Shown here piece after piece: positions 9,372 through 60,653 of a stretch of DNA of 64,000 nt. The translations under genes were made by a program, and so were the position numbers. The DNA comes from a virus (taxonomy: Duplodnaviria > Heunggongvirae > Uroviricota > Caudoviricetes). Positions within the stretch are counted from its first letter, which is position 1, and each line of letters starts with the position of its first letter. The stretch lies in IMG/VR virus record IMGVR_UViG_2802428878_000002; one strand, written 5' to 3'. The notes beneath the pieces are model-generated. The model worked only from the letters and a program-made list of their open reading frames with translations. It made no database searches and was not told the origin of the DNA.

Positions 9372-9372
9372 C

Positions 9373-12451: not shown

Positions 12452-12480
12452 CCACGTCCGCAGCGTTCGCCCCGCACGCG

Positions 12481-24244: not shown

Positions 24245-24481
24245 TTATCCCCCACCTCCGGCCTCATAAGCGAGGCCGAGAGCCTTAAGCGCAGTGAGCG
24301 CTTGACCTTCGTCTTTCACTACGAAGTCCTCAAGATGTTCAGCGATACCGTGCGACCGAACACGCCACCCTTCCGATCCGCCTACGACGGTTTCACCCTT
24401 GGCATACGCCAGGCAGTCGGTGCCGGAACCCGCAACATAGAGGCGATACTCGTTGTCCGCCTGGGTGATGAGGTGACTCAT
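24245..24481 (-). CDS. small hypothetical protein; second gene of a two-gene operon (possible toxin-antitoxin-like pair)
   Basis: Overlaps the upstream gene by 4 bp. 78 aa. Confidence 0.4.
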   Translation of the reverse strand: MSHLITQADNEYRLYVAGSGTDCLAYAKGETVVGGSEGWRVRSHGIAEHLEDFVVKDEGQALTALKALGLAYEAGGGG

Positions 24482-24660
24482 GCCGCACCGGCCTGTTCAG
24501 TGCGGAGCTGACGCTGAAGGCGCATCAGCGACCTGGTCGTGTCATACACAGACTCTGGGTAGCCGCGCTCGTCCACCAACTTGCCCGCGATGGAAACGAC
24601 CTCTCGCGGTGTCGAGGTCGCGGTGAAGCCAAGTTCGACAGCGTTCTCACAAAGTTCCAT
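24478..24660 (-). CDS. small hypothetical protein; first gene of the two-gene operon, with the palindromic motif 17 bp upstream
   Basis: ATG at 24658-24660 preceded by AAGGTGGGG. 60 aa. Confidence 0.4.
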   Translation of the reverse strand: MELCENAVELGFTATSTPREVVSIAGKLVDERGYPESVYDTTRSLMRLQRQLRTEQAGAA

Positions 24661-24677
24661 TACCCCACCTTTTCGAT

Positions 24678-24695
24678 TTCTCTATTTTAGAGAAT
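24678..24695. promoter_or_regulatory. Palindromic 18-bp motif TTCTCTATTTTAGAGAAT, copy 1 of 4, upstream of the 24660 gene
   Basis: Read directly. The half-sites TTCTCTA / TAGAGAA are perfectly inverted. Confidence 0.5.
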
Positions 24696-24973
24696 AGATG
24701 ATTGGGGTGACATGCCGTCCAGGGGCACGCGACACGCCGAGAGTCGTCAGTTCATCCGATTAGGTCCGATCGCAATTTGGAAGTACCTTCCCAACGGGGC
24801 CAGAACTGCTCCCGCGCCTGGACTCTCGACCAGCTCCGCTCCCCGGCGGCGGCTGACGAGAATCCGCAAGGGCCGAAGAACCTCGTGAAGGTCGCGTTCT
24901 GCGTTGCTCTCCCCTTTTCGTGGCGGGCGCGGGCCGGGGACGCACCGCTCGACGGAAAGGGAGGTCTCCTCTC

Positions 24974-26329
24974 ATGGCATCTGCCACCAATCGCACCGAA
25001 ATGCTGGCCAAGGCGCTCATGCGTGCTCGGCTGGATTTCACGCTGCACAACGCCCGTGTCTTCGCTCGTGCCGTTATCGACGCTCCGGAAAGCGTGTTCG
25101 GCGCCAAGCCGTTGCGGTTCCTACCGAACGACACCGACGGTGATGGCCCCGTCCGGCTCGTACTGGACGAGTTCGCGCAATCCGCGATCCCGCATCGGGA
25201 TGTCTTCGGTGCTGAAGTTCTGGGCACGGTACCTCAACCTGCGCCGCGGCCGCTGCCAGATCCTTTGGGAGATTGGGCCACCAGGCAACGCGAGTTCAAT
25301 CGCCACTGCATACCGGTCCCCGCCGGCGCAGCATTCTTTCGGAACGTTGAAGACGTGCCCGGGTCACTCGCCCCTGTTTCTCCAGCCGAGGCGAAGCCGG
25401 GCGACATCGTCACGGTCCTGGGCGGTGGCCACGGACTCTATGTCGGCAACGGCCAGATGCAGGTGCCCTCCACTGCACCAACGAAGTCAACCGCGGCCGA
25501 ATACGACCCGTCGAAGCCCAACCATTTCTTCGTTGACGCGCTCGGCGACCCGGACACCTGCCGCGGGAATCACAACCACCTCGAGCAGACCAACGAAACC
25601 CACATCAGCATCGCGGTCCAGTTGGAATGCGAGATGAAACTTCTCTCGCCACCTTCACCGCATCCGTTGCCCACCGCTACCCCTAGTGCGCGCGAGCGCG
25701 CGGCGTTTCCACTCGGGGTGGGTGCTACCGGTGAGCCAGTCACCTACAGCCCCGCCGCGGATGGCCACTTGCTGGTATTCGGCGGCGCAGGCCGCGGTAA
25801 ATCGATGTTGGTTCGAGGGTTGGTCCGGGACGCGCTAGCCACTAACTGGTGGGGTGCCAGACACCTTAATTCGCGGAAAGATCCGGACGCGGTTCTCGAC
25901 CAAATCAGGGGAATTCACGCAGAGATAGAGATACGCCGTGCCAGTCCGAAGCTCCACAAGCCCGAGCTTTTGGCGCTTGACGACGCACTGTGGGCTTACT
26001 TCGATGCGGCACAACGCGAGGAGCTACACGCCCTAGTCACAGAACTGCTGTCCACTGGCCGCGAACTGGGTCTCCACCTGGTGCTGGTCACCCTGACACT
26101 GGACAACGAGGAGAGATTCCCGTCTCGGTGGCTCGACTTGTGCTCGACGGTGCTGCTGACCTCCAAGCCAACCCACGACGACGCGGTAACGGTCATGGGC
26201 GATGATGCGGCTCAGCTTCCGCCATCGGGATGGGACGGCTCTGGAAAGATGCTGCTGGCTCGCCGCTTGACCGGTGTATCGAGACCGCTACGCGCGTACA
26301 CGCAAGCCGACAAGTACGAGGGGTACTGA
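24974..26329 (+). CDS. Two-domain protein: divergent NlpC/P60-like region fused to a FtsK/SpoIIIE/TraB-like P-loop ATPase
   Basis: PGDIVTVLGGGHGLYVGNGQMQV resembles NlpC/P60 (GDLVFF..HVGIYxGNGQMIHA). C-terminal Walker A LVFGGAGRGKSM and Walker B LHLVLVTLTLD. Start chosen at the ATG after AAGGGAGG. Confidence 0.6.
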   Translation: MASATNRTEMLAKALMRARLDFTLHNARVFARAVIDAPESVFGAKPLRFLPNDTDGDGPVRLVLDEFAQSAIPHRDVFGAEVLGTVPQPAPRPLPDPLGDWATRQREFNRHCIPVPAGAAFFRNVEDVPGSLAPVSPAEAKPGDIVTVLGGGHGLYVGNGQMQVPSTAPTKSTAAEYDPSKPNHFFVDALGDPDTCRGNHNHLEQTNETHISIAVQLECEMKLLSPPSPHPLPTATPSARERAAFPLGVGATGEPVTYSPAADGHLLVFGGAGRGKSMLVRGLVRDALATNWWGARHLNSRKDPDAVLDQIRGIHAEIEIRRASPKLHKPELLALDDALWAYFDAAQREELHALVTELLSTGRELGLHLVLVTLTLDNEERFPSRWLDLCSTVLLTSKPTHDDAVTVMGDDAAQLPPSGWDGSGKMLLARRLTGVSRPLRAYTQADKYEGY

Positions 26330-26357
26330 CCCTGAGGGGCGACGTCATGTCCCCGGG

Positions 26358-27155
26358 CTAGAGCTCCTTGACGATCCTGATCTCGCCGGGAAGTGGTTCG
26401 GAGTCGACCAGCCGTGTGTCCAGCATGATCGCTACAGAGGCGTTCTGTCGGCGCAGAGCTTCAGCCCTGTGCTGTCCGTTGCCAAAGCGTGGCGGCTCAT
26501 CCGGCTCAACAATGAGTCGGATGGGCTTGCGCCAAAACGACTGTGCGGCTTTCGCGAGGTCGCCCGGAACATGTGCTGGAAGGTCGGGCGGGAACTTCGA
26601 TCCGGACGACAGACACTCCGCAGCCAGGGACACTGCGGCCGCCCAGTCAACGGCCATGAACTTGTTCATATCGCGGAACAGATCGCCCTCCGGGAGTTCA
26701 CACACTGCGACCTTCCGAAGAACCTCCAAGTGCGTGACTGGCGGATCTTGCAACGGAACGAAGCCAATCCCTTCATCCCATTCGGCTCCGAGCTGATTCA
26801 GCACAATGAGGTCGTGCTGGGAAATGTCGGTGAGACCCAGATACCTTCCGTCAGTGTCGAACTCAGTGATGATTACTTCCCGCTCCGCATCGAACGCCGC
26901 CTTCGAACCTAACAGGTTGAAGATCACGACGGGTGGATGATGTGCATCTGAGAAGAACTCTCGCCATGCGGCCGAGCGATACTCCGCGGCGGCGAAGTCG
27001 GGGCTCGCGTCGACGTCCCCATCGCGGAGCGTGATCAACGCGATGTCGCGCCCTTCCCGATCGCGGAAAGTCTGAATACGCGCAGTGCCGCTGCCGTATT
27101 GATGGCTAGTCACCCACATGTGTACGTCGGCGCGTCGACCCGGTGCGATGTCCAT
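26358..27155 (-). CDS. hypothetical protein with a C-terminal ParB/DGQHR-like motif (FGNGQHRAEALRRQ)
   Basis: Last gene of a three-gene minus-strand operon. The motif resembles the ParB GxRR / DGQHR box. Confidence 0.5.
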   Translation of the reverse strand: MDIAPGRRADVHMWVTSHQYGSGTARIQTFRDREGRDIALITLRDGDVDASPDFAAAEYRSAAWREFFSDAHHPPVVIFNLLGSKAAFDAEREVIITEFDTDGRYLGLTDISQHDLIVLNQLGAEWDEGIGFVPLQDPPVTHLEVLRKVAVCELPEGDLFRDMNKFMAVDWAAAVSLAAECLSSGSKFPPDLPAHVPGDLAKAAQSFWRKPIRLIVEPDEPPRFGNGQHRAEALRRQNASVAIMLDTRLVDSEPLPGEIRIVKEL

Positions 27156-27232
27156 GAATCAAGCTCAACACGGAACCGTGCCGGATTGTGCGTCATCGAC
27201 CGCCGGCGTGGCGGATCGACGCAGAAGTCCGA

Positions 27233-27805
27233 CTAGCCCGAGCCAGAACGAAACAACCGGCGCAATCGCTGCTGCCATGACCTGCGGCGCTCTTCTGTTC
27301 TCGCCGCATCCATCGTCAGGCCCTGCCGCGGAGGTATGCGAAAGCGCGAAGCATGATCATCGCCCACAGCCAGGAGTTGATCCATCGGAGAGTCGTACCT
27401 ACTGATGATCACCATCGGATCCGACGCGCCGGCGCGGCTAGCCATCTCCTCGGCCATTCGGTGCACGTCATCAATGAATTGGCGCATAGCCGACTCAGGA
27501 TCGTCCACGGGTGGGCCCGCAGCAAAGGTGCTCGGAATGACCTGCATCGGGCCGTGACTCGCGCGCAACTCGTAGTGCTCGTCGATGTAAATCTCTCCGG
27601 CGGGTTCCTCCGATGGTTCGCGTTCCCCTACCGCGTGGCTTCCAGGGCAGCCGCCGCGGGGCAGGCCATGCCAGGGCGCACCACATCGGCATGCCGGTAC
27701 ACGCCCCGGCCTAGTCTCGCCCGCGGCTAGCTGACTGTCGATCAAATCGTCGGCTTCCAGCGCGTTGATCTCGGCGATCACAGCGTCTTCAGGTTTTCCT
27801 TTCAA
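27233..27805 (-). CDS. hypothetical protein (190 aa)
   Basis: Middle gene of the operon. Its start overlaps the upstream gene's stop. Confidence 0.5.
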   Translation of the reverse strand: MKGKPEDAVIAEINALEADDLIDSQLAAGETRPGRVPACRCGAPWHGLPRGGCPGSHAVGEREPSEEPAGEIYIDEHYELRASHGPMQVIPSTFAAGPPVDDPESAMRQFIDDVHRMAEEMASRAGASDPMVIISRYDSPMDQLLAVGDDHASRFRIPPRQGLTMDAARTEERRRSWQQRLRRLFRSGSG

Positions 27806-28515
27806 CGGCGCGCATCTCCCGCGTCGGCGCGCTCAATCACCGTGATCTTCGGCCGCTGCAACACGGTCTGCAACTGGCCTCGGTACATGCCGGTTCCGCA
27901 CACTGTTCCGGTGAGCTTCACACGATCGCCGCGACCGACGTCGTACAGGCAGCCGGCGGTTCCCTTGCACATGAGCACCTGACCAGACTCCAGCATGAAC
28001 ACCACGATCTTCACGTACTCGGTATGGCCGCTGTACCCGGTGCGTTCGAAGCCGGCCGAAACAGTCACGGAGGCCTCCAGGTCGCGCAAGCGTTGCCCTT
28101 CCGATCCGGCTGGAGTGTTGTTCAGGACGGCGCGACGCTCCTGCTCGGCATGCGCTGCTTCCCACGCCCAGTCGAATTCGGCGGCACGTCTCGCGGTTTC
28201 AGCCGCCTGTGCAGCCGCCGCTGCTTCGTCGGCCAGCTGCTGTCCGTGCTCACGGAACAGCGCCTCCACCCTAGCCTCCCGTCGGAACATGGACACGGCA
28301 CGGCTACGTAGAAGGCGTCCGGCTCCGTCGCAGCCGAAGCAGGTTCCACCCGCCTGGCCGGTGCTGGTCCACCAGGTGAAGATTCCGCTACCGCCGCACC
28401 GGCCACATGTCTCGGTCCAGCAGATGCGATCTGTCGCCGCCTTGCCCGGGTAGGGGTCGACATAGGTTTCCACCGTGAATCGGCGCCCCTGGTGAGTGAC
28501 GACAGCAGTACTCAT
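27802..28515 (-). CDS. hypothetical zinc-ribbon protein (CGRCGGSG...CFGCDGAG) with a coiled middle region; first gene of a motif-preceded operon
   Basis: ATG at 28513-28515 lies 14 bp downstream of motif copy 2. Two CxxC pairs. Confidence 0.55.
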   Translation of the reverse strand: MSTAVVTHQGRRFTVETYVDPYPGKAATDRICWTETCGRCGGSGIFTWWTSTGQAGGTCFGCDGAGRLLRSRAVSMFRREARVEALFREHGQQLADEAAAAAQAAETARRAAEFDWAWEAAHAEQERRAVLNNTPAGSEGQRLRDLEASVTVSAGFERTGYSGHTEYVKIVVFMLESGQVLMCKGTAGCLYDVGRGDRVKLTGTVCGTGMYRGQLQTVLQRPKITVIERADAGDARR

Positions 28516-28528
28516 ACGTCTCACTCTA

Positions 28529-28546
28529 TTCTCTATTTTAGAGAAT
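28529..28546. promoter_or_regulatory. Palindromic motif TTCTCTATTTTAGAGAAT, copy 2
   Basis: Read directly. Confidence 0.5.
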
Positions 28547-28627
28547 TTCAATGGAGAAGGGCGCGACCCCGTGTCATCACCTATCGAGATGAGCACCACG
28601 CGCACCCGTTGGGCGTACACATCGGAG

Positions 28628-48496: not shown

Positions 48497-49651
48497 ATGT
48501 CTGCACCAGCAGCCGTTCCCGCACTCAGTGACATCACACACCCGCCCGCCGCCGCTGTCGCACCGCCTGTTGTCGCTCCGGTGGCCGCTCCCGTTGCGCC
48601 CGTTGCACCGCCGGCAGCTCCGGCCACACCAACGGTCAGCCCGGTTGCGCCCGTTGCGCCGGTCGTACCCTTGAACACCGCGGCGCCGATTGTTCCGGCT
48701 CCCACAGCCGTTCTAGATGCCCCGGTTACTTCGTCTGAGCCGGTCCCCGTACCTGCGCCAGCCGCTCCTGCCGTCACTCCAGTGACCGTGGCTGCCGTCG
48801 AGCCGGCACCCTCGACTTCCCCGATCGCCGGAATCGCTCCGGTCACACCGCCTCCGGTCGCGCCATCTGTCACCCCTCCGGTGGCCCCGATCTCTGCACC
48901 AGCTGCGGCTGCTCAACCGGCACAGACCGCAGAACCCGCGCCGGCGCCTGAACCGGTCTATGCCCAGGGCACGGTCGTTGGCGCCGTTGATGTGGCACCA
49001 GTGGTTGCACCGGTTGTCGCAGCACCGAGTGTCGAATCGGTAGCTGCGCAAGCTGTCTCGGTGCCGGTGTCGGACAGCGTGCGGGCATTCGCAGCCCGGC
49101 ACAACATCGACCTATCGACCGTGACAGGAACCGGCAGTCGCGGGCGTATCACCCGCAAGGATCTCGAAGCGATCGTCGCAGCAGCTGCGGCACTTAGCTC
49201 CGAGGCCCCTGTCGCAGAGCCCGAAGTCGCCGCAGCGCCGGTAGCCGAGCCTGTTGCGCCTCCGGTGGTTCCTGCGCCCTCCCCCGCCTCGGTGGCGCCG
49301 GTTATCGTTGAGCCCACCACCACACCGGTGGAACCGGCTCCCGCACCTGCTTTCTCGGCGCCGATCGTCGCCGCCCCGAGCGCCACAGAGGAGCCCGCAC
49401 CTTCGGCTCTTACACCGGCAGCACCCGTTGACTCATCCCCGTCCCAGGTGGTCAGTGGCGGACTCAATCTGCGCGTGCCGATCGACCTGAGTGCCGGGAA
49501 CAAATTCGCGTTCGATGCCGGAACCGACTTGGTAGCGCTTGCTCGCGATGTCCTGCCCGCTCTGAACGTGCTGTCGGCGTTCGTCGAGCTCACCGTCGAA
49601 GGTCCTGCACTTGTGGTCACCGTGGCCGCGACGACGGCGGTCAGCTTGTGA
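48497..49651 (+). CDS. Pro/Ala/Val-rich low-complexity protein containing a peripheral-subunit (E3)-binding-domain-like segment
   Basis: VSDSVRAFAARHNIDLSTVTGTGSRGRITRKDLEAIV (about 49067-49177) matches the PSBD pattern sPlaRklA..gidl..v.GtG..GRItk.Dv. Confidence 0.6.
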   Translation: MSAPAAVPALSDITHPPAAAVAPPVVAPVAAPVAPVAPPAAPATPTVSPVAPVAPVVPLNTAAPIVPAPTAVLDAPVTSSEPVPVPAPAAPAVTPVTVAAVEPAPSTSPIAGIAPVTPPPVAPSVTPPVAPISAPAAAAQPAQTAEPAPAPEPVYAQGTVVGAVDVAPVVAPVVAAPSVESVAAQAVSVPVSDSVRAFAARHNIDLSTVTGTGSRGRITRKDLEAIVAAAAALSSEAPVAEPEVAAAPVAEPVAPPVVPAPSPASVAPVIVEPTTTPVEPAPAPAFSAPIVAAPSATEEPAPSALTPAAPVDSSPSQVVSGGLNLRVPIDLSAGNKFAFDAGTDLVALARDVLPALNVLSAFVELTVEGPALVVTVAATTAVSL

Positions 49652-50445
49652 CCGCTGTACCTTCAGACATCCTCGACAGCCAGGCACTGGGTGCGCAAGC
49701 ACCCGGTGCGCAGCCGATCCTGTTGCCTCGCCCGGTATCTGGCCGCAGCGATGGCCTGATCCCTGTACGTGTTGCTCCCCTGGTCTCGCACGATTCCGAA
49801 GAGTCGGGCGCTGCTGCTGAGAAAGTCACCGAGACTGTCATGGACATGCAGCTGATCGTGGATTACACGAACGCGTTGGCCAAGCGAACAGCCGCCAATA
49901 TCCAGGCCGACAACATCACTGAACTCGCGCAAGCACACGAACACCCGCAGCAGGGTGCCGCGTGCCTGCGGTGCTCGATTCTTGGTTCCTCGCGCAACCT
50001 GACACTGGGAACCACGCTGCTGGAAATTCTCGCGCGCACCAATGCCGACGAAGAGTGGAACCACAGCCAGGAGTGCACGGACACCAAAATCATCTCGCGG
50101 CTGAAGCGATTGGTAGTCAGCGCTACATCCCTGAAAGACATCTACGGCCCCCACTGGGGTCCAGTGATGCTCACATGCCTGCGTATCGAGGCTGCTGATT
50201 TCGCACTGCTGCACCATCTCACGCAGAAATACCAACACAGCAAGGTGCTGACCGTGCACACGCGCGAAGCACTGGCGGCGTACCACCTCGCCATGGTGAC
50301 TTGCCCATTCACGAGCACTGTGCGCGGTACGGCCAATCCGATGCTTCGCAGCGCGGTAGCCGTGCGTCTGGCCACCGCAACCGCAATGGTCGCCGTCGGC
50401 AAGCCACCGGTCTGGCTTGATCACCTGCCTGCCCCGGTTCTGTGA
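49648..50445 (+). CDS. hypothetical protein (265 aa)
   Basis: Translationally coupled (ATGA) to the next gene. Confidence 0.5.
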   Translation: MTAVPSDILDSQALGAQAPGAQPILLPRPVSGRSDGLIPVRVAPLVSHDSEESGAAAEKVTETVMDMQLIVDYTNALAKRTAANIQADNITELAQAHEHPQQGAACLRCSILGSSRNLTLGTTLLEILARTNADEEWNHSQECTDTKIISRLKRLVVSATSLKDIYGPHWGPVMLTCLRIEAADFALLHHLTQKYQHSKVLTVHTREALAAYHLAMVTCPFTSTVRGTANPMLRSAVAVRLATATAMVAVGKPPVWLDHLPAPVL

Positions 50446-51212
50446 ACACTCACGCACAGCCGCTCGACACGGCGATACCGACCCCTGACGGATTCCGCCG
50501 GCTGGACGATCTCGTCCACGGCGACACGGTGTTTGGTTCCGATGGAACCCCGATACCGGTTCTTGCCGTCAACGACATCGGATCCGTTTCGATGGCGCGT
50601 CTGCATTTCGATGACGGCGCCAAGACCGACGTAGCCGCGGAAACTCTGTGGCAGGCTCGTGACGGCGCCACCGGCGCGATCGGCATCTATCGCACCGCTG
50701 ATATCTGCGCCAATCTGGTGCTGCCGGGAGGTGCACCGCGTTGGACGATCCCGACTGCGGCAGCCGTTGCGTTCCCGGAGGCCGCTGGTCTCCCGGTCGA
50801 CCCCCTAACCTTCGGGTCCGAACTGCGCAGCGGCGAGGCTACTGACGCAGGCCTTCTTTGGCGGTACCTCACCGCGGACGTCTCACAGCGGCGCGAAACG
50901 CTCGCCGGTGTACTGGGCACGCGGTCCAGCATCGGAGCGTCGGCTCCCTCCATGGCGCTGGCCGCCGCCGGCTCTCTGATCCGTTCACTGGGCGGACTGC
51001 CCACATGGGTTCGGCACGGAGCCGGATACAGCCTCGTGCCGTTGTGGGGGCGCGACGATGAACTGCGCCGCGAAATCGTTTCGTTCGAGCAGGTTCCCGA
51101 TCAGCCTTGCCGCGCAATCACGGTGGCCGCAGCTGACGGGCTGTACGTCACTGGCGGTGACTTCGTTCTCACGCTCGGCGCCGCGATCGCCGAACAGCGA
51201 GGCGCTGCATGA
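50442..51212 (+). CDS. Free-standing degenerate intein-like (Hint) protein with LAGLIDADG-like remnants
   Basis: N-terminus LDTAIPTPDGFRRLDDLVHGDTVFGSDG is an intein block A lacking Cys1. C-terminus DGLYVTGGDFVLT is an intein block F/G with VLT in place of VHN. Middle region has LAGVLGTRSSIG. Confidence 0.5.
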   Translation: MNTHAQPLDTAIPTPDGFRRLDDLVHGDTVFGSDGTPIPVLAVNDIGSVSMARLHFDDGAKTDVAAETLWQARDGATGAIGIYRTADICANLVLPGGAPRWTIPTAAAVAFPEAAGLPVDPLTFGSELRSGEATDAGLLWRYLTADVSQRRETLAGVLGTRSSIGASAPSMALAAAGSLIRSLGGLPTWVRHGAGYSLVPLWGRDDELRREIVSFEQVPDQPCRAITVAAADGLYVTGGDFVLTLGAAIAEQRGAA

Positions 51213-53182
51213 CAGTCACCGACTTGGCTCCCGCCGCAGATCAAGAGCAGATGGCTTTCCCTGTCGCAGCCCCTGCAACCAACGAGCCACGTGCACTGCG
51301 CGAGTTTCAGATCGAAGCCGCCGATGCGGTATGCGCTGCCTACAACCGTGGCGTCGTGGGACCGGCGGTCGTGCTGCCGACCGGGACGGGAAAAACGACC
51401 GTCATCGCAGAGCTGGCGCGCCGTGAGGTGACCAACAGCGGCCGGGTGCTGCTGATGGCACACCGCGACGAATTGATCAAGCAGATGGCCATTGCCGTCT
51501 CAGCGGTGAACCCGGCCGGCCCCGTCCCCTCGCTGATCGGAGGAGACAATCGCGATGACCCGACTGCTCAGATTGTCTCGGCCACAGTGCAATCACTACA
51601 GACTGAGACAGCCCTAGCCAGAATCGGGCACCGCGACCTCGTCATCGTCGACGAGGCCCACCACGCGCCCGCCCGGACCTACCGCAAGGTGCTCGACCAC
51701 TTCACTGCTCTGGGCGCGCGCCGCGCCGGATTCACCGCGACGATGATCCGTCACGCCCCGAGCAGGGACGAGCCCGCCTTGAGGACCATCTGGGAAGAAG
51801 TGGTTTTCGAGCGGGACATCAACTGGGCCATCGAAAACGGCTTCTTGATCGCGCCAGAAGGCGTGACCGTTGAACTCCCGGAACTTGATGTCTCGAAGCT
51901 GTCCTCCGGTAGTGGCGGAGACATCTCCGACGAGGTCGCTGAAGAGGCGATGATGCGAGAGACCACGCTAAACGCCACTGTCGAGGCGGTGTTGACGCGC
52001 ACCGAGGGCCGCTCATCCATCGTCTTTGGCGCTTCGTTGTTGCACTGCGAGCAACTAGCCAAGTCCCTTGTCGAACAGGGTGTTTCCGCCGAAGTGGTTG
52101 TCGGAGAGACCAAAACCCGCGTCCGTAACGGCATTTACAACCGATTCCGACACGGGAGCACCCAGGTGCTGGTGACGGTCGACGTGCTCACCGAGGGAGC
52201 AGACTTCCCTCGCTGCGAAGCGGTCGTGCTGGCCAGACCGACGCGCAGCCAGTCCAGGCTTGTCCAATGTGTAGGGCGCGCTCTGCGGCCACACACCTTC
52301 GAAGACGGAACCGTCAAAGACACCGCTCTCGTCGTGGACCTCGTGGGCGCCGGATCCCTCGGGCTGATCGTCAAGACCCGCCTGGACCCCGAACACCGCG
52401 AGAAGCCGGAGAGCGACGAAGACGGGTTCGGTTGCTTCTGCCAGCAGCCCTGCACAAGTGACGAGTGCGACTTCTCCTGCACCGGAATAGGTTGTGAATG
52501 CAACTGCACGTGTGCGAACGAGTCGTCTGAGTCAGGTCCAGCCAGCGACCCCGTGTCCAGTGTCCCCTGCACATGCACATGCACGCTGACCTTCGGACTG
52601 TGCCGTTGCGGTTGTGAATGCGACTTGCACCGGGTAGATCCGCTGTGGACTTTCGATCCGGTTACCGGCGACGTCCTAGCCGCCGGAAAACAGCGGCGAG
52701 GCGACTCCAGCTGGTCGCAGCGCACCTCCACGATCCGCTGGGTACACCACCCCCGCGGCCTCGTGCGCTCGGTGTACCGCGCCAACGGCCACAAAGGCGT
52801 ACTGATGCTCGCCGATATGCGTGGTGTCGCCGGGACCGTCGCGGGCCGTGATTGGGCCTTCGGATTCTTCGACAGCACGGTGCACCGCATGTTCTGGGTC
52901 GGCCTCGATGGGCAGTGGACCGAACCGGGTCCCCGGTGCTACCTGCAAGGGCTGAGCCTGGCAGAGGCAGACGCGCTGGCGCAGAATATCTTTCCCGATC
53001 ACATGCGTGATCTCCCCCGCGCAAAGTCCTCCGATGCGCAGATCGACTTCGCGTCGCAATTGGGAGTCCCCGACGCCGGCCAGCTCGACCGCCGTGACCT
53101 CGGTGACCTGATCGCACTCGCCCAAGCCGAGAAGTGGCTCCCGGCCTTCCAGCGCCCCGGCGCCGTTGAAACCGCAGCTTGA
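51209..53182 (+). CDS. SF2 DEAD/DEAH-box helicase with an inserted Cys-rich (about 24 Cys) metallothionein-like cluster and a C-terminal domain of unknown function
   Basis: Walker A LPTGTGKT, DEAH box VIVDEAHH, motifs III and VI (TAT; QCVGRALR). Cys cluster CFCQQPCTSDECDFSCTGIGCECNCTC...PCTCTCTLTFGLCRCGCEC at 52433-52621. Confidence 0.85.
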   Translation: MTVTDLAPAADQEQMAFPVAAPATNEPRALREFQIEAADAVCAAYNRGVVGPAVVLPTGTGKTTVIAELARREVTNSGRVLLMAHRDELIKQMAIAVSAVNPAGPVPSLIGGDNRDDPTAQIVSATVQSLQTETALARIGHRDLVIVDEAHHAPARTYRKVLDHFTALGARRAGFTATMIRHAPSRDEPALRTIWEEVVFERDINWAIENGFLIAPEGVTVELPELDVSKLSSGSGGDISDEVAEEAMMRETTLNATVEAVLTRTEGRSSIVFGASLLHCEQLAKSLVEQGVSAEVVVGETKTRVRNGIYNRFRHGSTQVLVTVDVLTEGADFPRCEAVVLARPTRSQSRLVQCVGRALRPHTFEDGTVKDTALVVDLVGAGSLGLIVKTRLDPEHREKPESDEDGFGCFCQQPCTSDECDFSCTGIGCECNCTCANESSESGPASDPVSSVPCTCTCTLTFGLCRCGCECDLHRVDPLWTFDPVTGDVLAAGKQRRGDSSWSQRTSTIRWVHHPRGLVRSVYRANGHKGVLMLADMRGVAGTVAGRDWAFGFFDSTVHRMFWVGLDGQWTEPGPRCYLQGLSLAEADALAQNIFPDHMRDLPRAKSSDAQIDFASQLGVPDAGQLDRRDLGDLIALAQAEKWLPAFQRPGAVETAA

Positions 53183-53214
53183 CAGACCGACCACGAAACG
53201 CAGGAGGAGGACCG

Positions 53215-54210
53215 ATGTCGATGACGCAGGAAGTGCGTGACGAGTTGAGTCGCGCCACATCAATACACCAGGGGTGCAGGCGTGTTCAGGTCGCAGCTAT
53301 CGTCCGACTCGCTGGTGAGCTTCGTGTCTCCCGTACCGGGCTGACGGTGCACATCGAGGTCGGCACCGGTGCCGTCGCGCGGTACCTGCGCCGGGAAATC
53401 GCAGCGCTGTATGGCCACAAAGCAGTAGTGATCGTGAACAGCGAAACCGGATTGCGCCGTGGTGCCCGTTACACGGTGCGCGTGAGCGAAGGTGGGCGTG
53501 ATCTCGCCCTACAGACTGGTCTCATCGACCTGCGCGGCCGGCCCGTCACCGGGCTACCCGCGATGGTGGTCGGCGGATCACCGGGCGAGGTCGCCGCAGC
53601 CTGGCGCGGCGCCTTCATGGTCGCTGGATCATTGATCGGACCGAGCCGATCCAGCGCGCTGGAGATCAGCTGCCCCAACCCCGAGGTGGCCTTCGCGCTG
53701 ACCAGCTGCGCGCGCCGGCTGGGTGTTCAGTCGATGGTGCGCACGGCTCGTGGCATCGACCGTGTCGTGATTCACGACCATGACAGCATCGGAACGCTCT
53801 TGACCCGAATCGGTGCAGACGAGTCGCGCATCTCCTGGGAGCGGCGAATCGCTCAGCGCGCAATGCAGTCGACCGCAATCCGGCTGGTCAACCTCGATGA
53901 CGCCAACGCGCGTAGATCAGCACGAGCAGCGGCAGCCACGGCGGCCAAGGTGAAGCAGGCACTAGCGATTTTGGGGGCAGAAGCACCCGAGCACCTGGTG
54001 CACACCGGACAGCTTCGCCTGGATCACCGCGAGGCATCTCTGGAAGAGCTTGGGCAGCTCGCCCAGCCGCCCATCACCAAAGACGCTGTCGCAGGCCGGT
54101 TGCGGCGGTTGCTCATCATGGCCGACCGCCGCGCCGCCGGAGAAGAGCAGGACGAGTTCGATTCAGAGCGCCCCGACGGTGGGGCCGTCCGACTCCTGGC
54201 AGGTGCGTAA
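53215..54210 (+). CDS. whiA: WhiA-like DNA-binding protein (LAGLIDADG-derived domains plus C-terminal HTH): paralog 1
   Basis: Aligns by eye along its length with mycobacterial WhiA (VRDELSR...GLPAMVVGGSPGEVAAAWRGAFMVAGSL...RSSALEISCP...NLDDANARRSARAA...PITKDAVAGRLRRLLIMADR). RBS AGGAGGAGG before the ATG at 53215. Confidence 0.85.
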   Translation: MSMTQEVRDELSRATSIHQGCRRVQVAAIVRLAGELRVSRTGLTVHIEVGTGAVARYLRREIAALYGHKAVVIVNSETGLRRGARYTVRVSEGGRDLALQTGLIDLRGRPVTGLPAMVVGGSPGEVAAAWRGAFMVAGSLIGPSRSSALEISCPNPEVAFALTSCARRLGVQSMVRTARGIDRVVIHDHDSIGTLLTRIGADESRISWERRIAQRAMQSTAIRLVNLDDANARRSARAAAATAAKVKQALAILGAEAPEHLVHTGQLRLDHREASLEELGQLAQPPITKDAVAGRLRRLLIMADRRAAGEEQDEFDSERPDGGAVRLLAGA

Positions 54211-54213
54211 TCC

Positions 54214-54456
54214 ATGGATACCACCGATGTGTGCACCTGCCCTGATGGCCGCAATCACGTGGACTGCCAAGAACATCGGTGTAGCGACATTCGCCAAGCC
54301 CTGGACACTCCCATCTGGATTGAGCTCGCCTGGGAGATGGACCTCAACTGGGCGGGCAATGCCGGTGAGTTGTTCTGGCAGCACGGCCGGATCGAGCTGT
54401 GGACGTTCGACCAGCCCCCAACCGAGAAAGCACAGGAGACTAAGCATGTTGAGTGA
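54214..54456 (+). CDS. small Cys/His-containing hypothetical protein (80 aa)
   Basis: ORF directly after whiA-like 1. Confidence 0.4.
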   Translation: MDTTDVCTCPDGRNHVDCQEHRCSDIRQALDTPIWIELAWEMDLNWAGNAGELFWQHGRIELWTFDQPPTEKAQETKHVE

Positions 54457-54715
54457 CTGGGAACCCCACAACATTCCACCTTTCAAGTTGCCTGATATGA
54501 GCCCGCGGCATGCGCCAGAGACCTTGTTTCGGCCGCACACGGTGAACGTTCAGCGCGATCAGGACGCAGAAGTCGTGATCGTCAGCATTTCCGGCAATCG
54601 ACTGTTCAACGGAACACCGCATTTCGGCTGGCTCGATACGTGGGAATGGGATCGCGATCGTGACCCTCGGGAGCCATGGATCGACGACCTTATCGCCGAG
54701 GTGGTGAATCGATGA
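54446..54715 (+). CDS. small hypothetical protein (89 aa)
   Basis: ATG overlaps the previous stop. Confidence 0.4.
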   Translation: MLSDWEPHNIPPFKLPDMSPRHAPETLFRPHTVNVQRDQDAEVVIVSISGNRLFNGTPHFGWLDTWEWDRDRDPREPWIDDLIAEVVNR

Positions 54716-55050
54716 GTCCACGAAGATGGCCCATTGCGGCCGCACTGGCAGTCGTGCTCACCGCCTGCGGGAATGGACCAGCTGAAGGAAAGGTCGTAGA
54801 CACCGAGTACAGCCCCGCGTGGACCCAGTACGTGCCGGGCACCCCGGGATCAACGACATGCAGTGGGAGCCCGCCACGCTGCAACACATATCCCGGCACG
54901 CCGCCACAGTGGATCCCCCACTCGGAATCTTGGCGCCTGAGATTGGACAACGGGAAAGAGATCGGCTGGCGCGAGGTCAGTCGGGAGGAATACGAGGCGT
55001 GCACGCGCGATCAGCACTACCCCGAATGCGCGAAGGGCGAGACTCGATGA
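54712..55050 (+). CDS. putative lipoprotein (lipobox LTAC)
   Basis: Signal peptide MSPRRWPIAAALAVVLTAC|GNG. ATGA overlap with the upstream gene. Confidence 0.5.
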   Translation: MSPRRWPIAAALAVVLTACGNGPAEGKVVDTEYSPAWTQYVPGTPGSTTCSGSPPRCNTYPGTPPQWIPHSESWRLRLDNGKEIGWREVSREEYEACTRDQHYPECAKGETR

Positions 55051-55361
55051 GCTGCCGATACGCGACGAAGCGCCTGTTTCCGACAAGCGAACTCGCCCAG
55101 GCAGGCGCACAGGATATCCGCGCGACAGTGGAATCCGCGGGCCGCACTTTCCAGACGCTCCACCCATACAAGTGCCCCGACGACGCGGGGCACTGGCACC
55201 TTTCGCACTACCCGCAGGGCTTTGCCACCTGCTCATGGTGCCGACGTCGCGCGGAGGCCTGGTACGGCGGGAAGTTCTGGGTGATGGCCGCACACACCAC
55301 CGACGGCGGGCCTTGCCTGGGCGTTGGCGGCATGGGCAGCGACGGAGGTGACTCCCTGTGA
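55047..55361 (+). CDS. hypothetical protein with the Cys/His domain CPDxxHWHLS..PQG.A.C.WCRRR.EAWYGG..WVMAAH: paralog A
   Basis: Shares the N-terminal CRY... motif and the Cys/His block with the 60650-61609 protein. Confidence 0.5.
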   Translation: MSCRYATKRLFPTSELAQAGAQDIRATVESAGRTFQTLHPYKCPDDAGHWHLSHYPQGFATCSWCRRRAEAWYGGKFWVMAAHTTDGGPCLGVGGMGSDGGDSL

Positions 55362-55445
55362 GCGATGCGCCGATGCCCCACCAGACCCTGTGCACGGGTC
55401 GCTTTCCTGCCTCGGGTCGTCAGCAGCCTGAGAGGAGCAAATGAT

Positions 55446-55703
55446 ATGGGGCGAACCCCGTACCTGGCCACGCTGACCGAGAATGGCACCCAGATCGAGC
55501 ATTCCGACGCCTATGCACACAACTCGGCTGTCCGTAAGTCTGAAGCTCTGGTACGCAAACACGCCCGCACCCGTGGGATCACATTGACCGGTGACAAGCC
55601 GACTCGTGACGGCACCGTGTACACCCGCCGCTGGCACGCATCAACCTGCGAAGTGATAGTCACAGTACGGCCGAAGTCGCCTGTACCCGAGGAAACCCCA
55701 TGA
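55446..55703 (+). CDS. small hypothetical protein (86 aa)
   Basis: ATG after GGAGCA. Confidence 0.4.
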   Translation: MGRTPYLATLTENGTQIEHSDAYAHNSAVRKSEALVRKHARTRGITLTGDKPTRDGTVYTRRWHASTCEVIVTVRPKSPVPEETP

Positions 55704-56017
55704 GCGCCGCCGAGGTGCCCACGAGCATCGCCCAGCAGTACCCAGCGCGCACCGACACCAACGGAAACACCTGGTACCGGCCAGTGCGTCCCAAGGGATT
55801 TGACTTCGATCAGTGGGGCTGGACGTCCGACCCCGCGCAGGCTGATCCGAGCTACGCAGCCGATGCGGCGTCCTGCACCTTGACGGCGCCGGGCACTTCG
55901 TTGACGCCGGAGGACCGCGCTGCTGTCTTGGAGTTTCGGCAGTACCTCGCCGGTCTGCCCCTCCCATACGTGCCGGTTCTCGTCGACGTTCCCAGCCACA
56001 CCACTGATCAGGGATAG
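55700..56017 (+). CDS. hypothetical protein (105 aa)
   Basis: Coupled ORF. Confidence 0.4.
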   Translation: MSAAEVPTSIAQQYPARTDTNGNTWYRPVRPKGFDFDQWGWTSDPAQADPSYAADAASCTLTAPGTSLTPEDRAAVLEFRQYLAGLPLPYVPVLVDVPSHTTDQG

Positions 56018-56026
56018 GAGTATCCG

Positions 56027-56980
56027 GTGAATCCACTGACGCAACAGGTCAAATACGAACTGAATCGGGTACTTCCGTCTCCCTGCGACAAGCCTTCGAC
56101 CAGACGTGCGCAGGTCTCAGCGATGCTGCGCTTCGGCGGCGGGTTTTTCAGTGAGGGCCGCCGCTGCTGGATCGACGTCGAGCTCGATACGCTCGAAGCC
56201 GCGGTGTTCTTGCGCGACGAGATCACCAAGCTCTTCGACGCGGCGCCGCGCGCGTTCGAGCTCTCGGCGGGAACCTTCAAGGTGCGCCAGATACATCGCG
56301 CCCACAACCTAGCGGTGCAGGTGGGCCTGCTCAGCCCGTCGGGTCGACCGGTGGTAGGGATGGCGCCGACGGTGGTCGCCGGCACACGCGCTGACGCGGC
56401 AGCCGCACTTCGCGGTGCGTTCTTGGCACGCGGACAGATCATCACCCACGAGCTCCGCCGACCTCGCCTCGAGGTTGTGTGCCCGACTGCCCCAGCGGCG
56501 ATGGCACTCGGTGGGTTCGCCCGCCGCCACGGAGTACAGAGTCAGATGCGCGAATACACCCGCGACGGAGTATCTGTCGACGTATTCGAGATTCGCAAGA
56601 CCCCGGAGATGGGGAGATTCCTCATAGCCGTGGGAGCACCTGAAGCTGCGCACACCCTCATGAGCACGCACCGCGAATCGATGCGCGTCGAGAACCTCGA
56701 GGCTGCCAACAGCTCCAGGTTCATCCAGGCGGCACACGACCAAGCCGAATCAGTGGGGCGTGCGCTCCGAATCCTCGGCGATGACGTGCCACCACAGCTG
56801 GCAGAGGCGGCGCGACTACGCCTGGAGAACCCGGAAGCCCGAATGAGCGAGCTTGCAGCCAACGCCGATCCACCGATCACCAAGGACGCCTACGCCGGCC
56901 GAATCTGGCGCCTGCTGCAGCGCGCAGAAGAGCGCGCGAGGGACTCGGCAGCAGATTCCGACAATGCCGCCGCTCGATAG
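56027..56980 (+). CDS. WhiA-like protein: divergent paralog 2
   Basis: Same block order as WhiA (VKYELNRV...; AAALRGAFLARGQI; ENLEAANSSRFIQAA; PPITKDAYAGRIWRLLQRAEER). Confidence 0.7.
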   Translation: MNPLTQQVKYELNRVLPSPCDKPSTRRAQVSAMLRFGGGFFSEGRRCWIDVELDTLEAAVFLRDEITKLFDAAPRAFELSAGTFKVRQIHRAHNLAVQVGLLSPSGRPVVGMAPTVVAGTRADAAAALRGAFLARGQIITHELRRPRLEVVCPTAPAAMALGGFARRHGVQSQMREYTRDGVSVDVFEIRKTPEMGRFLIAVGAPEAAHTLMSTHRESMRVENLEAANSSRFIQAAHDQAESVGRALRILGDDVPPQLAEAARLRLENPEARMSELAANADPPITKDAYAGRIWRLLQRAEERARDSAADSDNAAAR

Positions 56981-57002
56981 ACCGCAACCATCACTAGTGA
57001 TA

Positions 57003-57020
57003 TTCTCTATTTTAGAGAAT
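57003..57020. promoter_or_regulatory. Palindromic motif TTCTCTATTTTAGAGAAT, copy 4, abutting the start of the 57021 gene
   Basis: Read directly. Confidence 0.5.
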
Positions 57021-57878
57021 ATGGAAGGGCTCGTTATGCCAGCATTCACCCCTCGACTCGGGCCGTTGACACCGGCAGCTCAGGCTGTCGCTGACAGCGT
57101 CTCCGCAAGATTCGCGGGAAGCCCGACCCGGTTCTACCCGTCGATCGAGCGTGACCCCCAAGAACCATACTCGGCGGTCATCGCACAGAGCTCAGATCTG
57201 ACCTGGCGCAAAGGTCGTGGAAAGTCCCGTAAGGGGTTCGGTCTCTGGATTCGCCCCAGGACCACACCCGCGGTGAAAGCCGTGCCTACCCGCATCCGCG
57301 AGAACATCGCTGCCTGCGCCGCACTTGGACTGAGCTACTGGAGCGAAGCGCCGGATCATGGGGCGTTGTGGGCGTTGGACACCGAGACCGTCATTCACAT
57401 GGTGATGATCACTCGTCATTCGAATACCGCGAAGCACATCTGCGGCACCGACAAGGCGCTGCGCTACGGGGACACTCGCAGGCGTTGCACCGGTACTGGC
57501 GAAAACGCCGAGTACGCGGCTACACCTGACGACGAAGGATTGTGGGCGCTCGCCGATTTTCGCCCCACCCCAGGTGCCTTCGTTGGCACGGTCGACACAC
57601 CCGCACAACGGGACCCACGGAAGGCGGTGAGACTCAAGATCGACCAACAGTTGCTGCTGTTCGTTGCTGCTCAGATCCGCGAAAACAACAGCGCCATCAC
57701 CACCCTTGATGCGGAGATACTTGCCGCTCTGTACTCGACCCGTCAGTATTCGAGCTCCTTAACACTCAGCGTCTCGGTCGCACGCGACCTCATGCCACTC
57801 ATCGAAGCTGAGATCAAGCGCCGAGCCGAGGCCGCCAATGAATGCGCCACCAACATGCGAGAGGCCGCCATAGCATGA
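57021..57878 (+). CDS. hypothetical protein (start at 57021 or 57036)
   Basis: ATG immediately after the motif; a second ATG at 57036 has RBS GGAAGGG. Confidence 0.55.
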   Translation: MEGLVMPAFTPRLGPLTPAAQAVADSVSARFAGSPTRFYPSIERDPQEPYSAVIAQSSDLTWRKGRGKSRKGFGLWIRPRTTPAVKAVPTRIRENIAACAALGLSYWSEAPDHGALWALDTETVIHMVMITRHSNTAKHICGTDKALRYGDTRRRCTGTGENAEYAATPDDEGLWALADFRPTPGAFVGTVDTPAQRDPRKAVRLKIDQQLLLFVAAQIRENNSAITTLDAEILAALYSTRQYSSSLTLSVSVARDLMPLIEAEIKRRAEAANECATNMREAAIA

Positions 57879-58507
57879 GCTACTATCCCGATCGAATGAA
57901 ACTGCGCCCCTTAGAGAATTGGCCCGGAACGTTTCCAAGCCTGCACATCCGTTCCCCTTTCTCGGCGCCACTGCGGACGACACTCGAAGAGCTCGACCGT
58001 GAGTTATCGTTCCTCGGATCGGACGGCTCGAACGCCCCGTCCGTACTCGAGGTCGCCCTCCGAGAGCGCGATTTCCGGCTCGACGGCCTGCCACGAGCCG
58101 ATGCGCGGGTGCAGCACCCTGGCGTGATCTTGCATATCGAATCCCGCGTCGGCCCGCTGTCGTACCCCGCGGCGAAATTCAATACGTGGCAGGACAATTT
58201 GCGTGCCATCACGCTAGGACTCAACGGATTGCGTCGTCTCGACCGATACGGGATCACCCCGGGAAGCGAGCAGTACACCGGGTGGAAACAGCTTCCGTCA
58301 GCGGGACAGTCCGGCGTGGTTGCGACCGCTGATGACGCAGAGCAGATCATCCGCCTGGCAGCTGGTGATCAGGATTCAGCGCTCGACAAGGCCTATCGCG
58401 CAGCACGGGGCAACTCGCATCCCGACCGCAACGACGGAGACCGCGCGAGATGGGACCTCGTCGAAGCAGCAGGCGATGTTCTTCGCCGCGCTGGCCGTCT
58501 GACGTAA
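57875..58507 (+). CDS. J-domain (DnaJ-like HPD motif) protein: N-terminal domain of unknown function plus C-terminal J-domain
   Basis: C-terminus KAYRAARGNSHPDRNDGD...WDLVEAAGDVL has the J-domain helix II-III HPD signature. Confidence 0.55.
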   Translation: MSYYPDRMKLRPLENWPGTFPSLHIRSPFSAPLRTTLEELDRELSFLGSDGSNAPSVLEVALRERDFRLDGLPRADARVQHPGVILHIESRVGPLSYPAAKFNTWQDNLRAITLGLNGLRRLDRYGITPGSEQYTGWKQLPSAGQSGVVATADDAEQIIRLAAGDQDSALDKAYRAARGNSHPDRNDGDRARWDLVEAAGDVLRRAGRLT

Positions 58508-58618
58508 ACGACTGCGACGACCTGTACCTATGTCCCACTACCCGCCCGATACCTGCTGATACTTACCCGCCGTCGACCCCTCGTTATCGCCAATCACATC
58601 GAAAGGACTCGAGCAGCC

Positions 58619-58960
58619 TTGAGCGACAAAGAGGCACTACCCGCTGGTACTGAAGTCGTCATCTACGGACAACCACTTTGGCTTGGCGTGATCGTGAGTG
58701 GTCCGGACGAGAACCTACTAGGCAACGTGTCTTATCGGATCCGTTGTGAGAACGGAGAAATCGTCAAACGGGCACCGTCGATTGTCGTGCGACGCACCGA
58801 CTTCGCCACCAGCTGGCATGTCTGGAAAGACGACCAGGTCATCGCCGGCGGCCCAGAAATCTCACGCGAACGAATGGACCAGTATGCCGCTGAGCACGGT
58901 GGAGAGGTCCTCTACGGCTGGCCAGAAGGTCATCCGGAAGCGCAGGCACCGGCGCAGTGA
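58619..58960 (+). CDS. hypothetical protein (113 aa)
   Basis: ORF with ATG start. Confidence 0.45.
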   Translation: MSDKEALPAGTEVVIYGQPLWLGVIVSGPDENLLGNVSYRIRCENGEIVKRAPSIVVRRTDFATSWHVWKDDQVIAGGPEISRERMDQYAAEHGGEVLYGWPEGHPEAQAPAQ

Positions 58961-58982
58961 ACTGAAAGGACTATGAACCACC

Positions 58983-59813: not shown

Positions 59814-59814
59814 C

Positions 59815-60345: not shown

Positions 60346-60653
60346 AGTATCCCGCAGATTTCGTGAGCGCCGATCTCGGCTGGTGCCGTATCCATCGTGG
60401 TCACGGTCTGGAAGTGAATGAACTACTGGCGGACCTGACAGAGTGCGGTGGGAGCGCGCGGCGCGACGGTGAGGAGACCATCGTCGAGCAAGTCCACCTG
60501 TACTACCAACCGCGCATCAAATGGTGCGGTCGCCACGGCGATCCGTGTGACAACGAAGGCGAATGGCACGGTCACTGGTTCGCGGCTCGTCCGAGCACCG
60601 ACACAGCGTTCACCCTGGTCTACTGGGGCAGACCAAAGGAGGCAGCCGCGTGA
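60342..60653 (+). CDS. small Cys/His-rich hypothetical protein
   Basis: Coupled ORF. Confidence 0.4.
   Translation: MKYPADFVSADLGWCRIHRGHGLEVNELLADLTECGGSARRDGEETIVEQVHLYYQPRIKWCGRHGDPCDNEGEWHGHWFAARPSTDTAFTLVYWGRPKEAAA

Follow-up and report, generated by a model that had tools for sequence, protein, structure and literature searches.

A palindrome repeated at operon starts of a large Mycobacteroides abscessus element as a probable repressor operator

Of the known control systems considered, the Cro/CI-type operators of XRE repressors (lambda, 434, P22 C2, and ImmR of ICEBs1) come closest to the subject of this report, a palindrome that recurs at four operon starts in a 64,000-nt stretch of DNA (IMG/VR record IMGVR_UViG_2802428878_000002; this whole stretch is called the window), which, judged from its sequence, belongs to a large mobile element integrated in Mycobacteroides abscessus. 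As in those systems, the palindrome is short, its half-sites lie one helical turn apart, it overlaps −35 and −10 hexamers (predicted ones in the present case), a small helix-turn-helix (HTH) protein of the XRE type is encoded by the element, and operators are found on the promoter of that putative regulator. Unlike the classical operators, which are clustered at one immunity region, the sites here extend over more than 100 kb at many operons, and the element family carries two paralogous XRE genes. Moreover, no RecA-cleavable C-terminal domain is evident in these 91-99-aa proteins, and no adjacent gene for an ImmA-type protease was found.

Several other systems share one or more of these properties. 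The repressor of the Streptomyces phage phiC31 reportedly has conserved inverted repeats (CIRs) in many intergenic regions at early promoters, and the palindrome resembles them in being one conserved inverted-repeat operator that would recur across an actinobacterial mobile element, its own repressor gene included; it differs in sequence and in the repressor family (which is set apart here without a homology test), and its host is a very large integrated plasmid-like element and not a phage. The boxes bound by ClgR, which among solved proteins is the nearest relative of the XRE family discussed below, are palindromes with short arms around a 5-nt centre, as is the present sequence, but the arms here are TCTCT/AGAGA instead of CGC/GCG, and the position of the sites argues for repression, whereas ClgR activates. 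The stoperators of mycobacteriophage L5 and cluster A are 13-14 bp long, asymmetric, oriented with transcription, and act on elongation. What the element has in common with them is that many copies of one putative repressor site are distributed over mycobacterial mobile DNA, for the most part in short gaps between genes; in contrast to stoperators, the site is symmetric, has no orientation relative to the genes, and overlaps predicted promoters. The analogy with phage stoperators and operators that had been drawn in the first-pass annotation thus survives for a classical operator and fails for a stoperator. KorB of the IncP plasmids belongs to the ParB family and can also act from a distance. 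The KorA/KorB regulons are comparable in that several promoters of one mobile element, those of its replication, maintenance and transfer operons, each have a copy of a palindromic operator; here, however, the only ParB-like genes are putative members of the regulon, and all sites examined but one are found 13-190 nt before a start codon.

Among the Mycobacteriaceae, large elements of a plasmid-like or integrative character that carry type VII secretion genes are known (PMC7478629, PMC12803027), and the closest annotated relative of the present element, in a Tsukamurella record, looks like one of these. Neither publication mentions a promoter or repressor motif, and a literature search for the motif string gave no match. 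With moderate confidence, the palindrome is read here from sequence comparison as the operator of a repressor that the large integrated M. abscessus element itself would encode. A repressor-operator switch is of an ordinary kind, and has not yet been described for these elements.

The palindrome, its distribution and the predicted promoters around it

Pattern scanning of the window recovered the four copies of the first-pass annotation at their reported positions, three of them identical to the 18-mer TTCTCTATTTTAGAGAAT (24678-24695, 28529-28546 and 57003-57020) and the fourth, TTCTCTGTTTTAGAGAAG at 32492-32509, with 2 mismatches to it; two additional minus-strand matches were the palindrome matching itself. 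That four copies are not due to chance was borne out by 100 dinucleotide shuffles of the window, which gave 0.01 ± 0.10 matches at up to 3 mismatches, and a pattern made of the arms only (TCTCYN5RGAGA) returned the same four sites and no others, with 0.19 expected. The G+C content of the window is about 0.62 and not the 66% first given. The inverted repeat around TTT is real and exceeds the 18 bp initially assigned to it: the full symmetric unit comprises 19 nt, ATTCTCTA-TTT-TAGAGAAT (8+3+8), and the symmetry at the fourth copy reaches 23 nt. The centres of the two arms are 11 bp apart, i.e., one helical turn. All four copies (c1 to c4, Table 1) are intergenic and stand just upstream of the first genes of operons, as had been claimed. 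The distance to the first start codon is 17 nt at c1 (ATG 24660, minus strand), 13 nt at c2 (ATG 28515, minus strand), 57 nt at c3 (GTG 32434, minus strand) and 15 nt at c4, where ATG 57036 on the plus strand begins the DUF7457 gene; this last start is supported by an M. abscessus orthologue (L099) that begins at the equivalent ATG.

Recurrent copies of this kind might also represent a dispersed repeat, such as a miniature inverted-repeat transposable element (MITE) or a repetitive extragenic palindrome (REP), or else an RNA hairpin or terminator. As RNA, the 23-26-mers fold to a 10-bp hairpin (−9.5 to −10.9 kcal/mol), and the same 18-mer is indeed found inside a long repeat in Niallia. The flanks in the window are unrelated, however: the 100 nt on either side of c1-c4 could not be aligned with one another, and in a matrix built from 45 distinct sites at 20 loci the information is restricted to about 21 bp, falling to about zero past 3 nt on either side of the 15-nt core, so that the longer repeat named at the outset as the finding that would speak against a regulatory motif was not encountered. 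As for a terminator, the stem is A/T-rich and not followed by a T-run, a terminator scan found none at the sites, and these lie upstream of genes and not at operon ends, with the exception of c4, which is nevertheless 15 nt before the next start. A repeat, hairpin or terminator is accordingly given a very low probability. The Niallia sequences are a contrast case in their own right. The 18-mer occurs at least 9 times in one Niallia tiangongensis chromosome (L002, L007, L014, L033, L046, L061, L062, L071, L072), where each copy is embedded in a dispersed repeat with almost no differences in the 100+ nt of flank that were compared, and also in Niallia hominis (L068); its occurrence in such an AT-rich genome is an unrelated coincidence.

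The restriction of the motif to the element can be followed in the closest annotated relative, a stretch of Tsukamurella tyrosinosolvens NZ_LR134455.1 that begins, at 120.9 kb, with a tyrosine integrase and has its gene order in common with the window. There, 18 copies of the core TCTCTATTTTAGAGA (up to 2 mismatches) are spread from 123,014 to 260,205, all past the integrase, and the 120 kb of housekeeping DNA preceding the integrase contain zero copies. All 18 are in annotated intergenic DNA, which at a coding density of about 85-90% argues against chance, and 17 of them are upstream of a gene start on either strand, 16-190 nt away where the distance was measured; the exception, at 123014, is between two convergent genes. 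The motif also occupies orthologous places in two M. abscessus subsp. massiliense-type elements (L090 and L091, the DNA of which is 74-82% identical to the window), in Mycobacterium sp. D16Q14 (L092) and in Mycolicibacterium conceptionense (L093). Its positions before the SPFH, Zn-finger and FtsK-like genes and after whiA have each been kept in some or all of these relatives and Tsukamurella, while the surrounding intergenic DNA has diverged. The c1 site is retained in both M. abscessus elements, in D16Q14 and in Tsukamurella (L082:31378), where it precedes the FtsK-like gene, and the c4 position just past whiA is occupied in L099 (at 7203) and in Tsukamurella (L081:42972). At the c2 site, four sequences (window, L090, L091, L092) have in common the palindrome, TA-n-n-G-T, exactly 7 nt, and ATG or GTG. 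Upstream of the SPFH gene, the sole conserved island in six sequences from four genera consists of TTG, the palindrome and T-A-C-n-n-T. The distance from this site to the start is about 55 nt in Tsukamurella and 58 nt in the other three species (M. abscessus, Mycobacterium sp. D16Q14, M. conceptionense). As negative controls, the contexts of TIGR04338 genes in two other mobile elements (L100, L101) contained no motif.

A consensus scan of positions 24400-32800 detected three sigma-70-like promoters in total, all of them on motif copies and on the strand of the downstream gene (Table 1). Two layouts could be distinguished across 46 sites surveyed. In class A, to which c2, c3 and the Tsukamurella cysS, RNA ligase and SPFH sites belong, the palindrome forms the 16-17-bp spacer between a TTGnnn −35 hexamer and a TANNNT −10 hexamer that starts at its last base; at the surveyed sites with such a downstream TANNNT, the −35 hexamer matches TTGACA at a mean of 4.6 of 6 positions. 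In class B, there is no −10 hexamer after the palindrome, (T)TGTCA is present 17-18 nt upstream at several sites, the leader is 12-30 nt long and bears a Shine-Dalgarno sequence, and the centre of the palindrome (TAAAAT or TATTTT) is likely to serve as the −10 hexamer. By these features, c1 would be a class B site, with a predicted leader of about 17 nt to ATG 24660 containing the Shine-Dalgarno sequence AAAGGTGGGG, and c4 probably one as well. The view that the motif embeds a −10 hexamer therefore applies to c1 and perhaps c4, and does not apply to c2 and c3, where the −10 hexamer abuts the palindrome. Since the c2 −10 hexamer is only 7 nt from ATG 28515, a leaderless transcript is predicted. 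At one Tsukamurella site, TACTTT plus 7 nt leads to the same first base (GTGG...) of the conserved leader described below as does the different promoter TAGGCT plus 7 nt in a metagenomic homologue (L098), which supports the use of the internal hexamer. The transcription starts at all copies are predictions from sequence, and would fall at about 24677 for c1, 28515 for c2, 32479 for c3 (7 nt past TACGAT) and 57020 for c4.

A −10-like centre raises the alternative that the motif is a strong, symmetric, bidirectional promoter element read by the host sigma-A RNA polymerase with no dedicated regulator: its centre can be read as TATTTT or, from the opposite strand, as TAAAAT, TATTCT is present in the outer arm, and genes follow the motif in either direction. 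Against this, the palindrome at c2, c3 and their orthologues is the spacer, a segment that RNA polymerase does not recognise by its sequence, and yet it is the most conserved block there. Conservation is also highest in the arms and not in the centre: the SPFH and XRE2 sites (the latter described below) retain the arms and have lost the −10-like centre; in the SPFH site, a substitution kills the internal TANNNT on the SPFH-coding strand in six of six sequences, although the exact base varies. In M. conceptionense, the SPFH site even has an inverted centre (GTTTT for AAAAC) between unchanged arms, so that no particular orientation of the centre with respect to the gene is required. A perfect two-fold symmetry over 19-23 bp, finally, is not a property of promoters. 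For these reasons an operator is favored over a mere promoter, and the bidirectional promoter is considered unlikely.

A candidate regulator and the probable direction of control

A symmetric site whose two halves are centred 11 bp apart is characteristic of binding by a dimeric HTH protein, and in this respect the proposal of a small regulon under one dimeric protein, made in the first-pass annotation, agrees with the promoter-associated palindrome; the regulators that it put forward, an HTH_17 protein or the WhiA paralogues, do not fare as well. The gene after the Tsukamurella operator at 234,850 encodes an XRE-type protein, and homologues were found in motif-bearing loci of a Leucobacter metagenome-assembled genome (MAG; L060), M. 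austroafricanum (L035) and M. canariasense (L003), while a profile search found the family in M. abscessus, D16Q14, M. conceptionense, Tsukamurella and others. The proteins share the sequence I-D-x-R-V-(L/F)-S-R-I-E-R-G-(E/D)-R, and their genes are present in every related element whose relevant region was readable. In 11 of the 11 XRE genes examined, from 7 genomes (two in Tsukamurella, two in M. abscessus, two in D16Q14, and others in M. conceptionense, M. austroafricanum and, again two, the Leucobacter MAG), the operator or an arm-conserving variant of it ends 23-45 nt before the start (Table 1). There are two paralogues per element (L094:5379-5678 and 10001-10276; L096; L035; L060), in tandem in Mycolicibacterium. 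XRE1 is beside eccB in M. abscessus and Tsukamurella and has a near-canonical operator, whereas XRE2, which starts with MP(V/I)HPQR, has an operator with conserved arms and a different centre (TCTCC-ACATT-AGAGA, TCTCT-GCGAT-AGAGA, TCTCT-GTATT-GGAGA, and a further centre ACTTT). Both M. abscessus XRE genes share a contig with the WhiA-DUF7457 block and lie about 22.6 kb downstream of the second WhiA gene; this spacing would place them about 16-20 kb past the right end of the window.

The nearest solved relatives of the XRE family are ClgR (3f51, E = 2e-7; 5woq), P22 C2 and the 434 repressor, with the Xre regulator of ICEBs1 also among its relatives. ClgR, P22 C2 and the 434 repressor are dimeric proteins that bind short palindromes. 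With 16-22 bits against the NCBIfam ClgR model, the cut-off of which is 170, the proteins are not orthologues of ClgR, and the resemblance goes no further than the general XRE fold. By association, XRE is the only DNA-binding family that is consistently tied to the motif in the sequences compared, and a small ClgR/Cro-like XRE protein would be the best candidate for the binder.

The operator could instead belong to a different protein of the element, i.e., a WhiA paralogue, the HTH_17 protein or a ParB-N/KorB-like protein. Two WhiA paralogues and an HTH_17 protein are encoded within the window, in M. frederiksbergense (L018) a motif copy has an HTH_17 homologue at a distance of 3.5 kb, and a gene for a ParB N-terminal domain follows an operator in Tsukamurella and M. 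conceptionense. On the other hand, the HTH_17 gene (20968-21264) has no operator upstream, and its Tsukamurella homologue is beside the tyrosine integrase, in the position of an excisionase. The WhiA genes are upstream of c4 and downstream of no copy, and the window and Tsukamurella proteins are only about 36% identical in spite of an identical operator core. No ParB homologue, ParB-N included, was detected in the window, and the sites, unlike those of parS or a plasmid centromere, are not clustered near parAB, there being one site per promoter, dispersed over more than 100 kb. At the Leucobacter and Mycolicibacterium loci, furthermore, the motif has XRE genes beside it and no member of these three families. 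Control by one of these proteins is thus rather improbable.

The same protein might also act as an activator that turns the operons on, as ClgR does at clp promoters, and both the relationship to ClgR and the want of a good −35 hexamer at several class B sites would fit such a role. An activator centred at about −22 (class A) or placed over −10/+1 (class B) would, however, clash with the polymerase, and the class A hexamers are near consensus with 16-17-bp spacers and need no activation; activation through the spacer, as by MerR-type proteins, needs a spacer of 19-20 bp. An activator site is given little probability, and repression is favored, since a protein at either position should exclude RNA polymerase.

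In the proposed mechanism, a dimer of the Cro/CI-type, ClgR-like XRE protein would bind the two 8-bp arms and block RNA polymerase, the operator overlapping the predicted core promoter. One switch would thereby govern four units of the window, namely the two-gene unit together with the divergent FtsK-like gene, the Zn-finger operon, the SPFH operon, and the operon from DUF7457 to DUF4926, and the two XRE paralogues would be autoregulated through the operators on their own promoters. It is from the association and the site positions that we infer both binding by the XRE protein and repression as the direction of regulation. Several observations weigh against this repressor model. The 64-kb window itself contains no XRE homologue, as judged with a hidden Markov model of the family, so the link to the window copies rests on orthologous elements; an operator upstream would make the XRE genes members of the regulon and is not proof that they encode the binder; and ClgR is known as an activator. 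At c4, no −35 hexamer is recognisable. The centre also has a strand bias that does not depend on gene direction: of 25 element sites, 19 have TATTTT on one and the same genomic strand, among them all 4 copies of the window, 13 of the 17 Tsukamurella copies, and 2 out of 4 additional M. abscessus copies placed in the same frame. A purely symmetric dimer does not predict this bias. Relative to the gene, the centre reads TAAAAT at 13 sites and TATTTT at 12.

The element, its operons and a conserved leader

Proteins of the window and their Mycobacteroides counterparts have identities of 97-100% (100% for P0241, M. abscessus; 97% for P0001, M. saopaulense), and the matching proteins are on contigs of up to 0.9-1.6 Mb, which points to the window as part of an integrated element. 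It encodes FtsK/SpoIIIE-like ATPases, an SPFH protein, an SLT transglycosylase, a family-A DNA polymerase, a helicase and two WhiA paralogues, in addition to DUF7457, DUF2786/DUF7168 and DUF4926 proteins and a TIGR04338 metallohydrolase. The Tsukamurella stretch has, in addition, EccB/EccC, mIHF, ParB-N, RNA ligases, cysS and Thg1, and the gene set of the element family includes PolA, helicase, WhiA, FtsK-like, SPFH and ESX/EccB-EccC. A megablast of 20 kb of the window against plasmids and phages gave a single 548-bp match, to the Tsukamurella record, and zero phage matches. The motif scan of IMG/VR yielded chance matches in AT-rich sequences only and no high-GC contig with the motif. A scan of genome contigs for the exact 18-mer gave at least 80 loci, mostly chance matches in AT-rich genomes; among the matches listed, 12 were high-GC actinobacterial loci, and their 8-kb neighbourhoods had no DNA similarity and almost no protein similarity to the window.

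Table 1. Operator copies, predicted promoters and adjoining transcription units (positions in the window unless a locus is named)
Feature	Coordinates	Strand	Remarks
Operator copy c1	24677..24695	.	TTTCTCTATTTTAGAGAAT; divergent region, 60-aa gene (-) vs leader + FtsK-like gene (+)
Operator copy c2	28528..28546	.	perfect 19-mer
Operator copy c3	32491..32509	.	ATTCTCTGTTTTAGAGAAG; centre variant abolishes internal -10
Operator copy c4	57002..57020	.	perfect 19-mer within 23-nt palindrome ATATTCTCTATTTTAGAGAATAT
Predicted c1 promoter, sigma-A type	24684..24713	-	-35 ATGTCA, 18-nt spacer, -10 TAAAAT = palindrome centre
Predicted c2 promoter	28523..28551	-	-35 TTGAAA, 17-nt spacer = palindrome, -10 TAGAGT
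Predicted c3 promoter	32486..32513	-	-35 TTGACT, 16-nt spacer = palindrome, -10 TACGAT
Two small genes after c1	24245..24660	-	60 aa (24478-24660), 78 aa (24245-24481); orthologues follow motif in L090, L092
Conserved non-coding leader, ~180 nt	24793..24973	+	between c1 and FtsK-like gene; candidate structured RNA
FtsK/SpoIIIE-like ATPase gene	24974..26329	+	start revised to ATG 24974, Shine-Dalgarno GGAAAGGGAGG
c2 operon	26358..28515	-	237 aa (27802-28515), 190 aa (27233-27805), 265 aa (26358-27155); no significant Pfam family
c3 operon	28867..32434	-	SPFH/Band-7 gene (31499-32434), then four or five genes down to 28867
c4 operon	57036..61883	+	DUF7457 (57036-57878), 221 aa, 113 aa, DUF2786/DUF7168, TIGR04338 (59815-60345), 348 aa, DUF4926
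Operators before XRE genes	L083:34850, L102:4245 (approximate), L094:5333, L094:9963, L096:7979
Operators before XRE genes (continued)	L096:9963, L097:9962, L035:1480, L060:1029, L060:5255

Some of the names first given to the genes behind the copies, a TA-like pair, a ParB-like gene and a J-domain gene, found no significant support in Pfam. The small proteins after c1 and c2 gave nothing useful from Pfam even at permissive thresholds; the first protein of the c2 operon contains two CxxCxGxG motifs (CGRCGGSG and CFGCDGAG) like those of the DnaJ zinc finger, and the 221-aa protein of the c4 operon has a DnaJ match below threshold. The c4 copy itself lies between the stop codon of the second WhiA paralogue (56980) and the DUF7457 gene. 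A separate, perfect 12-bp palindrome, ATCACTAGTGAT, is found at 56989-57000, between this stop codon and c4, and is missing in the M. abscessus orthologue L099. The metallohydrolase of the c4 operon, with an HELAH motif, belongs to TIGR04338 (HEXXH_Rv0185), a family widespread in Mycobacteriales; an identity as an ImmA/IrrE-type protease was considered for this HExxH protein and rejected, the match being weak (E = 0.05).

For the non-coding leader between c1 and the FtsK-like gene, identity among the window, M. abscessus L090 and D16Q14 L092 amounts to 93-98%, as against only 70-82% for coding DNA, and the leader can still be recognised in Tsukamurella as well as in the metagenomic contig L098. 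RNAalifold of these five sequences, three of which are close to one another, gave 60-61 pairs, 9-10 of them backed by double (compensatory) changes, and in four of the five the last helix pairs the Shine-Dalgarno sequence. The leader has no match in Rfam, and a metagenome scan for its core added one sequence. It is a candidate for a new cis-regulatory RNA or, alternatively, for a DNA site such as clt, and is mentioned here as a lead.

Three further features of the window concern its gene content. To the left of the motif-bearing block, a Tn7/Tn5053-like module (6271-13908) carries a Mu-type transposase (rve), TniB and a TniQ-like gene, after which come a membrane protein of the DUF347 family and a two-component system of the OmpR type. 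A PrimPol/D5-type primase-helicase of 825 aa (1452-3929, minus strand) is in a region of lower G+C (0.52-0.57), which is probably a separate island adjoining the element. The PolA gene (44175-46970, minus strand) has a 283-aa insertion at 44916-45764 relative to the Tsukamurella orthologue, in which the flanking RM|SA are contiguous; as in an intein, its first residue is Cys, its last is Asn and the next residue after it is Ser, and no Pfam intein or Hint match was reported.

Meaning for the element family

M. abscessus is an important drug-resistant pathogen, and its large integrated or plasmid-like elements, with genes for type VII secretion and FtsK-type transfer, have been catalogued. A more far-reaching possibility, which we hold only tentatively and regard as doubtful, is that the two XRE paralogues form a CI/Cro-like bistable switch that silences the whole giant element through about 10-20 operators, perhaps with the leader RNA as an additional layer and the metallohydrolase as an anti-repressor, the latter role being speculative. 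If this were true, the silenced functions would include replication, FtsK/ESX-type transfer, SPFH and tRNA repair.

One 19-bp palindrome, the putative operator, marks operon starts of such elements in Mycobacteroides, Mycolicibacterium, Mycobacterium, Tsukamurella and a Leucobacter MAG. The design is conceptually familiar, and the value of the finding is practical rather than surprising: the operator offers a sequence handle by which these elements can be delimited and their transcription units predicted, and removal of the XRE proteins may provide a route to switching the elements on in order to study their excision and transfer.

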